The notes below the pieces were generated by a model. The model was not told the DNA's origin. It searched no databases and saw nothing but the letters and a program-made list of their open reading frames with translations. From Chitinophagales bacterium (lineage in GTDB: Bacteria; Bacteroidota; Bacteroidia; Chitinophagales; Chitinophagaceae), in the NCBI GenBank assembly GCA_017303395.1, contig JAFLBN010000011.1, forward strand, positions 16,249 to 80,248: a stretch of DNA of 64,000 nucleotides, given 5' to 3'. Position 1 is the stretch's first letter; every line of letters starts with the position of its first letter. The position numbers and the translations under genes were made by a program. This document shows positions 39,662 to 41,305 of this stretch, in pieces.

Positions 39662-41305
39662 ATGCCATTAGATACTTCCATAAAGACAGTCCTCATCATC
39701 GGTTCGGGTCCAATTATTATAGGCCAGGCTTGCGAGTTTGACTATTCAGGCTCTCAGGCAGCACGCAGCCTTCGCGAAGAGGGTATTAAGGTGGTGCTTA
39801 TCAATAGCAACCCCGCTACCGTAATGACAGATACCATTGTTGCTGACAAGGTATACCTGCAGCCACTGACGGTTGAAAGCATTGAAAAAATACTGCAGGA
39901 AAACAAAATAGATGCCGTATTGCCAACCATGGGCGGACAAACAGCCTTGAACCTGGCAATGGAAGCTGAAGAAATAGGCCTGTGGGAACAGTATGGTGTC
40001 CGCATGATAGGTGTAGATACCAAAGCCATTGACAAAGCAGAAGACCGTGAAAAATTCCGCCTGTGGATGATTGAAATGGGCATACCTGTAGCACCGGCAA
40101 AAATTGCCAACTCGCTGCTGGAGGGTAAAGAATTTGCACAGGAAATAGGTATTCCGCTGGTTATCCGCCCTTCGTTTACGTTGGGTGGTACAGGTGGCGG
40201 CCTTGTTTTTCATAAAGACGATTTGGATGCGGCACTGGAAAAAGGTCTTACCGCATCGCCAATACACGAGGTACTGGTAGAAAAAGCAGTAATGGGTTGG
40301 AAAGAGTTTGAGTTGGAACTGCTGCGCGACTCTGCTGACAACGTAGCCATCATCTGTACGGTAGAAAACTTTGACCCGATGGGCATCCACACAGGCGATA
40401 GCATTACCGTGGCACCTGCCATGACACTGAGCGATACTGCCTTCCAGCTGATGCGCAACACGGCCATCCGTATGATGCGCGCACTGGGCAATTTTGCTGG
40501 TGGTTGTAACGTACAGTTTGCACTGAACCCTGAAACAGAAGAAATCATCGTAGTAGAGATCAACCCGCGTGTAAGCCGCTCTTCGGCACTGGCTTCAAAA
40601 GCTACGGGTTATCCTATCGCTAAGATTGCCGCTAAGCTGGCAGTTGGCTACAACCTCGATGAACTGAAAAACCAGATTACACAAACTACATCTGCATACT
40701 TCGAGCCTGCGCTTGATTACGTTATCGTAAAGATGCCACGCTGGAACTTTGATAAGTTTAAAGGTGCAGACGATACGCTGGGCTTCCAGATGAAGTCTGT
40801 AGGCGAGGTGATGGCTATCGGCCGCACATTCCCCGAGGCACTGCAAAAAGCTTGTCAGAGTCTGGAGAACAATGCAACAGGTCTTTCTTTCATCAGCGCA
40901 CAACGCATGAAGCCTGAAGAACTGCTGGAATCTATCAAGCGCCCTACATGGGATAGGATTTTCAAAATAAAAGAAGCCATCGCAGCGGGTATATCTATCA
41001 AAACCCTGCGCGAGATAACGCATATAGACCGTTGGTTCCTGTACCAGATACAAGACATTGTAACACTGGAAAACAAACTGAAAGAAATAAAACACCTGGA
41101 AAGCATACCTGCAGACATGCTGCGCGATGCAAAGCAAATGGGCTTCAGCGACGACCAGATAGCAGAATTTGTAAAAGACTGCACGGCCGAAGAGGTGTAC
41201 GAATACCGCAAGAAACTGGGTATCACCCGTGTTTACAAAATGGTAGATACTTGTAGTGCCGAGTTCGAAGCGAAAACACCATACTTCTACAGCACATTCC
41301 TGTAA
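39662..41305 (+). CDS. carB: carbamoyl-phosphate synthase large subunit, N-terminal half only (carboxyphosphate ATP-grasp + oligomerisation domain)
   Basis: From ATG 39662: [33 protein letters not shown]...[23 protein letters not shown]...[20 protein letters not shown], then a stop. The protein ends at the inter-domain linker. The ORF-track 5' extension overlaps the neighbouring lipoprotein gene and is non-homologous. Confidence 0.9.
   Translation: [547 protein letters not shown]

Follow-up and report, generated by a model that had tools for sequence, protein, structure and literature searches.

In a 64,000-nucleotide stretch of DNA from a member of the Chitinophagaceae (Chitinophagales bacterium, GenBank assembly GCA_017303395.1, contig JAFLBN010000011.1, positions 16,249 to 80,248; hereafter the window), carB, the gene for the large subunit of carbamoyl-phosphate synthase (CPSase), is divided between two genes. 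The first, carB-N (39662..41305, + strand), encodes the carboxyphosphate ATP-grasp unit and the oligomerisation domain, while the second, carB-C (50762..51955, - strand), encodes the carbamoyl-phosphate ATP-grasp unit. This split carB is real, functional and old, and it adds a new bacterial example to a known arrangement rather than representing a new kind of system. A literature search of limited coverage found no described split carB in Bacteroidota.

The two halves and the whole protein

The carB-N open reading frame (ORF) runs from an ATG at 39662 to a stop codon at 41303-41305 and encodes 547 residues, ending in Phe-Leu-TAA. Its Pfam domains are CPSase_L_D1 (residues 7-125), CPSase_L_D2 (128-334) and the oligomerisation domain CPSase_L_D3 (PF02787, 424-503, E = 1.7e-27). 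It scores 851.6 bits against NCBIfam NF003671, covering model positions 1-541 and passing the cut-off of 599, and phmmer aligns its residues 1-546 with E. coli CarB 1-547. An earlier note on this DNA, made from the sequence alone, had taken this ORF for the first half of CarB, and all three comparisons confirm that reading. The start codon it chose is also correct, as homologues begin MP(R/L)D at the equivalent site. Public gene calls begin at ATG 39527 and give a protein of 592 residues; because this extension (39527-39661, + strand) traverses the conserved promoter and leader of carB, 39662 is the right start.

The second half is equally intact. carB-C encodes 397 residues with the Pfam domains CPSase_L_D1 and CPSase_L_D2, corresponding to E. 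coli CarB residues 558 to about 937, and it lies where the earlier note had placed it, on the opposite strand and 9.5 kb away. Its start is ATG 51955, which is conserved in other species; a TTG upstream at 51979 is not the conserved start. The codons ccg ctc just before this ATG are the Pro-Leu linker codons of contiguous relatives. The protein scores 565.2 bits against NF003671 (model positions 544-923), below the cut-off of 599, since only half of the 1058-position model is covered, and missing this equivalog cut-off accounts for its database name, 'ATP-grasp domain-containing protein'. Against TIGR01369, both halves stay below the cut-off of 1027 (831.9 bits for carB-N, 506.9 for carB-C), and no single polypeptide was found to reach the curated CarB equivalog score. 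The two tandem CPSase_L_D1 and D2 units typical of the CarB family are nevertheless present, one per gene. Neither gene contains frameshifts or internal stops, and alignments to E. coli CarB show that both keep the E-x-N-P-R motifs, which are catalytic and bind metal and ATP.

These alignments locate the break after the oligomerisation domain and before the second synthetase unit, at about residues 548-557 of E. coli CarB, which supports the earlier proposal of a cut exactly at this linker. Together the halves amount to 944 residues (547 + 397), compared with 947-951 in the contiguous CarB of the nearest relatives, a gap of roughly 3 linker residues. These relatives are metagenome-assembled genomes (MAGs) of Flavipsychrobacter and Taibaiella, together with Polluticoccus soli (P0062), and their proteins are 85-88% identical to carB-N. 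No Pfam match to the MGS-like allosteric domain (E. coli CarB residues 937-1073) was found in either half; the contiguous proteins of 947-951 residues likewise lack it, so that the split genes miss nothing and 944 residues make up a lineage-typical protein. Contiguous CarB from Chitinophagaceae shares with the window 85-90% identity over both halves, the same flanks, the promoter box and the leader hairpin, and differs in being a single polypeptide with an intact linker (…STFEQ-GPLSQTP…).

Both halves have been under strong purifying selection since the split. The ratio of nonsynonymous to synonymous substitution (dN/dS) between the window and the Flavipsychrobacter MAG GCA_017308155.1 (locus L094) is 0.057 for the N-half and 0.036 for the C-half. 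For the C-half it falls to 0.017 against the complete chromosome CP075895.1 (L093) and 0.019 against Chitinophagaceae bacterium IBVUCB1 (L012), with synonymous sites saturated between species (dS about 1.2-1.5). These values (0.02-0.06) are as low as those in contiguous relatives. Strains differ by 4-14 synonymous and 0 nonsynonymous changes in the C-half and by 7-10 synonymous and 0-1 nonsynonymous changes in the 3' third of the N-half; the pN/pS of neighbouring genes among strains is 0.02-0.13. Such constraint upholds the view that this is a functional two-gene CarB and no pseudogene.

Distribution and history of the split

Whether a misassembled inversion could have produced the arrangement had been raised at the outset, and independent assemblies, other species and the complete chromosome CP075895.1 answer against an artefact. 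An identical carB-C of 397 residues is encoded by 14 contigs of NCBI, JGI and Logan samples that are independent of one another, always in one and the same neighbourhood and with the N-half on the opposite strand beyond msrB; these loci are different strains, because their DNA identity to the window is no more than about 96.5%. Further assemblies repeat the N-half together with its stop codon and hairpin, and in CP075895.1 the C-half is a stand-alone gene. In two strains (L001:20334-21194, GCA_046297715.1; L003:15459-16319, SRR31360863), what follows the msrB terminator bears no relation to the window (<41625) for at least 860 nt, so the msrB/carB-N junction is structurally polymorphic within the species. 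This divergent stretch is AT-rich and holds no long ORF.

The arrangement extends well beyond one species. About 100 stand-alone proteins, 392-406 residues long, 85-100% identical and many of them on megabase contigs, matched the C-half in a search; NCBI calls them 'ATP-grasp domain-containing protein' or 'carbamoyl-phosphate synthase large chain', JGI 'carbamoyl-phosphate synthase large subunit'. Stand-alone C-halves with the junction type of the window form at least 46 clusters at 90% identity; their N-termini read MSSS…/MSAAS…NES, and they constitute one pure clade with the window. Further lineages have stand-alone C-halves with other junction types. Genomes with a split carB include GCA_018604165.1 (CP075895.1), GCA_046297715.1, GCA_017308155.1 and that of T. 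chishuiensis (GCA_003014535.1). The uniqueness implied by the earlier note is thus lost, as the split is common in close relatives and both genes are already listed by NCBI and JGI.

Searches from the other end are less informative. The best 120 protein matches to carB-N are all full-length, and such a search is blind to stand-alone N-halves because both halves of full-length proteins score against the query. A scan of genome contigs with carB-N, in which the peptide GQACEFDY is ubiquitous, gave one close locus among the matches listed, L013, which is contiguous, and the oligomerisation domain alone retrieved fragments only.

In this family, carB has been split at the same linker at least twice, judging from sequence comparison, since a second lineage differs in breakpoint, insert and tree position. 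In that lineage (L095, ERZ25067825, with P0188-type C-halves), stand-alone N- and C-halves likewise result from a cut in the linker. The N-half has 552 residues, ends in …STFERPAVS-stop and has its own terminator, and the C-half has 397 residues and starts MNHSILQNES; the two lie on one strand, 8.5 kb apart, with unrelated genes between them (DUF445, DUF1501, DUF1800). The breakpoints are not the same: the Pro-x-Val/Leu-Ser linker codons belong to the N side in L095 and to the C side in the window type, the L095 break lying a few codons further on. Backbone branches in a neighbour-joining tree of C-halves alone (0.001-0.008) are too short for counting fissions, and a concatenated N+C neighbour-joining tree with bootstrap was used: window and L094 pair in 78/100 replicates, while window, L094 and L095 are monophyletic in 0/100. 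A Taibaiella type, in which dnaN stands directly upstream of a C-half starting MLQNES or MLHNES and no N-half occurs within 10 kb, may represent a third fission event.

Comparison of gene order makes the history of the window locus legible. In contiguous relatives (L006, L007), the order is MreC-MreB-x-LVIVD-carB-(variable)-GNAT-TonB receptor-4HBT-M16 peptidase; in the window, the left flank of this locus remains with carB-N and the right flank with carB-C. In L094 and L101, an N-half of 547 residues and a C-half of 399 lie on the same strand, about 7 kb apart, separated by a GDSL lipase, an NA37 protein, three small genes and a carbamoyltransferase-DUF5989-SxtJ-like module. Their junctions are those of the window: the N-half ends TTC CTT TAA T where the window has TTC CTG TAA T (…STF-L-stop), and the window, L094, L093 and L012 all keep the leader tTAACTTTGc.gctcATG ahead of the C-half. 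A single local inversion of 10.6 kb as the cause of the split is excluded, given that L094 and L101 share these junctions with both halves on one strand; it is also contradicted by L093 and L012, where the C-half follows the same upstream module and no N-half occurs within 10 kb. The idea that carB-C is simply the inverted half of one gene therefore fails, the split being older than the inversion in the window. Relative to carB-N, the segment that extends from the carbamoyltransferase as far as msrB lies inverted in the window species.

One old event parted the halves, most simply an insertion of several kb into the linker. On this reconstruction, DNA would have entered the surface linker (E. 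coli CarB residues about 548-557), so that carB-N ran into a stop after one further codon and carB-C was left with an ATG within the linker. Later rearrangements in the window species placed the genes on opposite strands, 9.5 kb apart. carB-N retains the ancestral carB locus with its promoter box and leader hairpin, and carB-C the ancestral downstream genes.

The upstream neighbours of carB-C are a carbamoyltransferase (Carbam_trans_N/C, 53477-55393, - strand), DUF5989 (53305-53451, - strand) and an SxtJ-like gene (52942-53304, - strand), assigned with Pfam; we take this trio to resemble the sxtI/J/K module of saxitoxin clusters. The SxtJ-like gene is common to the window, L094, L093 and L012, and in the last three the module stands directly upstream of the C-half, with an intergenic gap of 18 nt in L094. 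Every window-type genome thus has a carbamoyl-phosphate consumer within its split synthase gene. In the window, a gene for a 312-residue alpha/beta-hydrolase-like protein (52000..52938, - strand) with a weak Abhydrolase_3 match separates the SxtJ-like gene from carB-C; this insertion is found in L001-L005, is absent at this position in L094, L093 and L012, and is confined to this species. On the other side, between the LVIVD gene and carB-N, lie two tandem paralogous ORFs for small lipoprotein-like proteins (38541-39041 and 39061-39522, - strand; 166 and 153 residues) with no Pfam match, which are absent in L006 and L007; L094 has one ORF of 148 residues there.

Proposed assembly of the enzyme and alternative readings

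The products of carB-N and carB-C probably re-associate with CarA into a normal CPSase. The large subunit would then consist of two separately transcribed and translated polypeptides, carB-N contributing the bicarbonate/carboxyphosphate unit with the oligomerisation domain and carB-C the carbamate-phosphorylating ATP-grasp unit. By analogy with the Aquifex aeolicus proteins (CPS.A, CPS.B, GLN), the halves would most likely join non-covalently with CarA and restore an enzyme with internal tunnels.

Split large subunits have precedents. In Methanocaldococcus jannaschii, each of the two homologous halves has its own carB gene, an archaeal case of independent origin. The Aquifex precedent invoked in the earlier note is borne out by PMC6022934, which, citing Ahuja et al. 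2001, reports that the split enzyme (CPS.A, CPS.B, GLN) assembles 1:1:1 and is active, and that CPS.A by itself, and likewise CPS.B, carries out both of the ATP-dependent partial reactions. As described there, two genes likewise encode the Aquifex large subunit, the cut falling between the first half, which includes the oligomerisation domain, and the second. Unlike Aquifex, the window organism is a mesophilic member of the Bacteroidota whose C-half, like all its relatives, lacks the MGS-like domain. Its split is recent enough for contiguous relatives to be about 85-90% identical; the history of its locus, insertion followed by rearrangement, is readable from synteny.

Several points weigh against this reading of a reassembled enzyme that arose by insertion. 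Formation of the complex is something we infer, and the insertion mechanism is drawn from one type of collinear relative (L094, L101); neither a transposase or integrase nor a clear target-site duplication turned up. carB-N and carB-C are transcriptionally uncoupled, in different transcription units, and their stoichiometric co-expression is not guaranteed. No carA was found in the window, and none adjoins carB in the relatives L006 and L007. Finally, a divergent second full-length carB may exist elsewhere in the genome, although no full-length protein more than 88% identical to carB-N appeared among the best 120 matches in a database that includes the window species.

A functional repartition would give carB-C a second role. 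The protein would also work alone, for example as a homodimeric carbamate- or ammonia-dependent former of carbamoyl phosphate that supplies the adjacent SxtI-like carbamoyltransferase operon, and the fission would be adaptive rather than neutral. The position of carB-C behind a carbamoyl-phosphate-using module in all window-type genomes, separated by as little as the 18-nt gap in L094, is consistent with such a role, as are the activities that PMC6022934 gives for the isolated Aquifex halves and the recurrence of fission in the family. The link to the carbamoyltransferase is not general, however, because L095 has unrelated genes between its halves and the Taibaiella type adjoins dnaN; moreover, the N-half is equally conserved. 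On balance, this repartition is unlikely. More speculative still is a combined proposal for the Taibaiella-Flavipsychrobacter group, in which the carB linker would be a recurrent tolerated or favoured fission site and the window-type C-half, recruited to the SxtI-like operon, could make carbamoyl phosphate alone while completing the canonical enzyme with carB-N and CarA.

That the halves are decaying remnants of a disrupted carB, with CPSase supplied by another gene, is very improbable. The possible second carB and the score of the C-half under the NCBIfam equivalog cut-off (565 vs 599 bits) could be cited in its favour, but the low score reflects half-length coverage of the 1058-position model; both ORFs have stayed intact across species whose synonymous sites are saturated, at a dN/dS of 0.02-0.06, and the C-half has accumulated zero nonsynonymous changes among strains. 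Least credible of all and, as far as sequence data can tell, of practically negligible probability is a misassembled inversion cutting a truly contiguous carB: flipping 41.3-52.0 kb would indeed put the C-half right after the N-half, in the order of L006 and L007, but assemblies made independently, from many samples and with many assemblers, show the same arrangement, the segment has no long inverted repeats at its borders, stand-alone halves occur elsewhere in other layouts (CP075895.1; L094 and L101, same strand, 7 kb), and the stop codon, start codon and leader are conserved across species.

A two-gene CPSase large subunit in this family has practical consequences. The unspecific name given to carB-C and the over-extension of the N-half to 592 residues could lead pathway reconstructions to score CPSase wrongly as truncated or missing in these Chitinophagaceae, which are common in soil and fresh water. 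CarB originated through internal duplication and fusion; in this mesophilic bacterial family the opposite step, fission, is caught while split and contiguous forms are still about 85-90% identical. These bacteria accordingly lend themselves, as a convenient natural system, to the study of how an enzyme with internal tunnels copes with fission and with uncoupled transcription of its halves. Of moderate interest are the repeated fission at one linker and the placement of a carbamoyltransferase module ahead of carB-C.

Expression signals and other features of the window

Each half is preceded by conserved candidate signals. Upstream of carB-N, TACTTTTG (39586..39593, + strand), invariant in split and contiguous relatives, is a candidate -7 promoter box of the form TAnnTTTG, the Bacteroidota -7 consensus of Bacteroides and Flavobacterium promoters. 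It is followed by a hairpin, and the composite of TACTTTTG, then TCGGGCGTTGAGCCCGA and TTTTTGTATC (39586-39625, + strand), precedes carB or carB-N by 40-120 nt in split and contiguous relatives alike. The hairpin with its U-tract, CTCGGGCGTTGAGCCCGATTTTT (39597..39619, + strand), occurs once in the window and never in shuffled sequences, and a terminator scan of the window also called it terminator-like. It stands directly upstream of carB or carB-N in L006, L007, L013, L094 and L008-L010 (L006:9926-9948, L007:9918-9940, L013:9894-9916, L094:1232-1254); in L094 the loop varies and the stem is kept. This conserved leader could act as an attenuator. An Rfam scan of the carB leader gave no family match.

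The carB-C leader, TAACTTTGccgctc (51956..51969, - strand), is conserved in the window, L094, L093 and L012. It contains a TAnnTTTG box, TAACTTTG (51962-51969, - strand), placed 6 nt before the carB-C ATG and conserved in the four species, which is presumably carB-C's own promoter. No terminator-like site was found between the carbamoyltransferase gene and carB-C, so read-through from the carbamoyltransferase operon into carB-C is possible. Across the window, TAnnTTTG is rarer than in shuffled sequences (47 sites vs 64), yet it is concentrated just upstream of start codons, occurring within 120 nt of 10 of the 41 gene starts against 1.8 expected. Some boxes lie only 5-6 nt from the ATG (iPGM, 59440; carB-C, 51955), suggesting mRNAs that have a very short leader or none.

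The hairpin and T-run that the earlier note had reported after carB-N are present at 41329-41357 (+ strand), 24 nt past the stop codon, as a terminator-like structure of 13 pairs. The segment 41300-41375 has a folding energy of -26.8 kcal/mol (z = -5.4 vs shuffles). Strains of the window species (L097, L099, L100) keep this hairpin; it is absent in L094 and L101, where a lipase gene overlaps the stop codon.

The last carB-N codons, AGCACATTC (41291..41299, + strand), have an identical 9-mer counterpart at 51969-51977 of that strand, which borders the carB-C leader and shares 1 nt with the TAACTTTG box. The two copies are direct repeats bordering a 10.7-kb block, with a rough chance estimate of at most about 0.01 (windows of ~40 nt). 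The repeat fits no proposed mechanism and may have arisen by chance.

Elsewhere in the window, a cyanophycin cluster (27173-31692) comprises a cyanophycin synthetase (875 residues, - strand), a cyanophycinase-like peptidase S51 (+ strand) and an Asparaginase_2/isoaspartyl dipeptidase-like gene (- strand). Cyanophycin is an arginine-rich polymer, and arginine synthesis needs carbamoyl phosphate. An S-adenosylmethionine (SAM) riboswitch (RF00162, 76 bits; 5677-5792, - strand) lies upstream of genes for a Cys/Met pyridoxal phosphate (PLP) enzyme (4312-5493) and a homoserine dehydrogenase (3004-4257). Two tandem paralogous DUF3667 genes occupy 16819-18906 (+ strand) and encode 353 and 337 residues.

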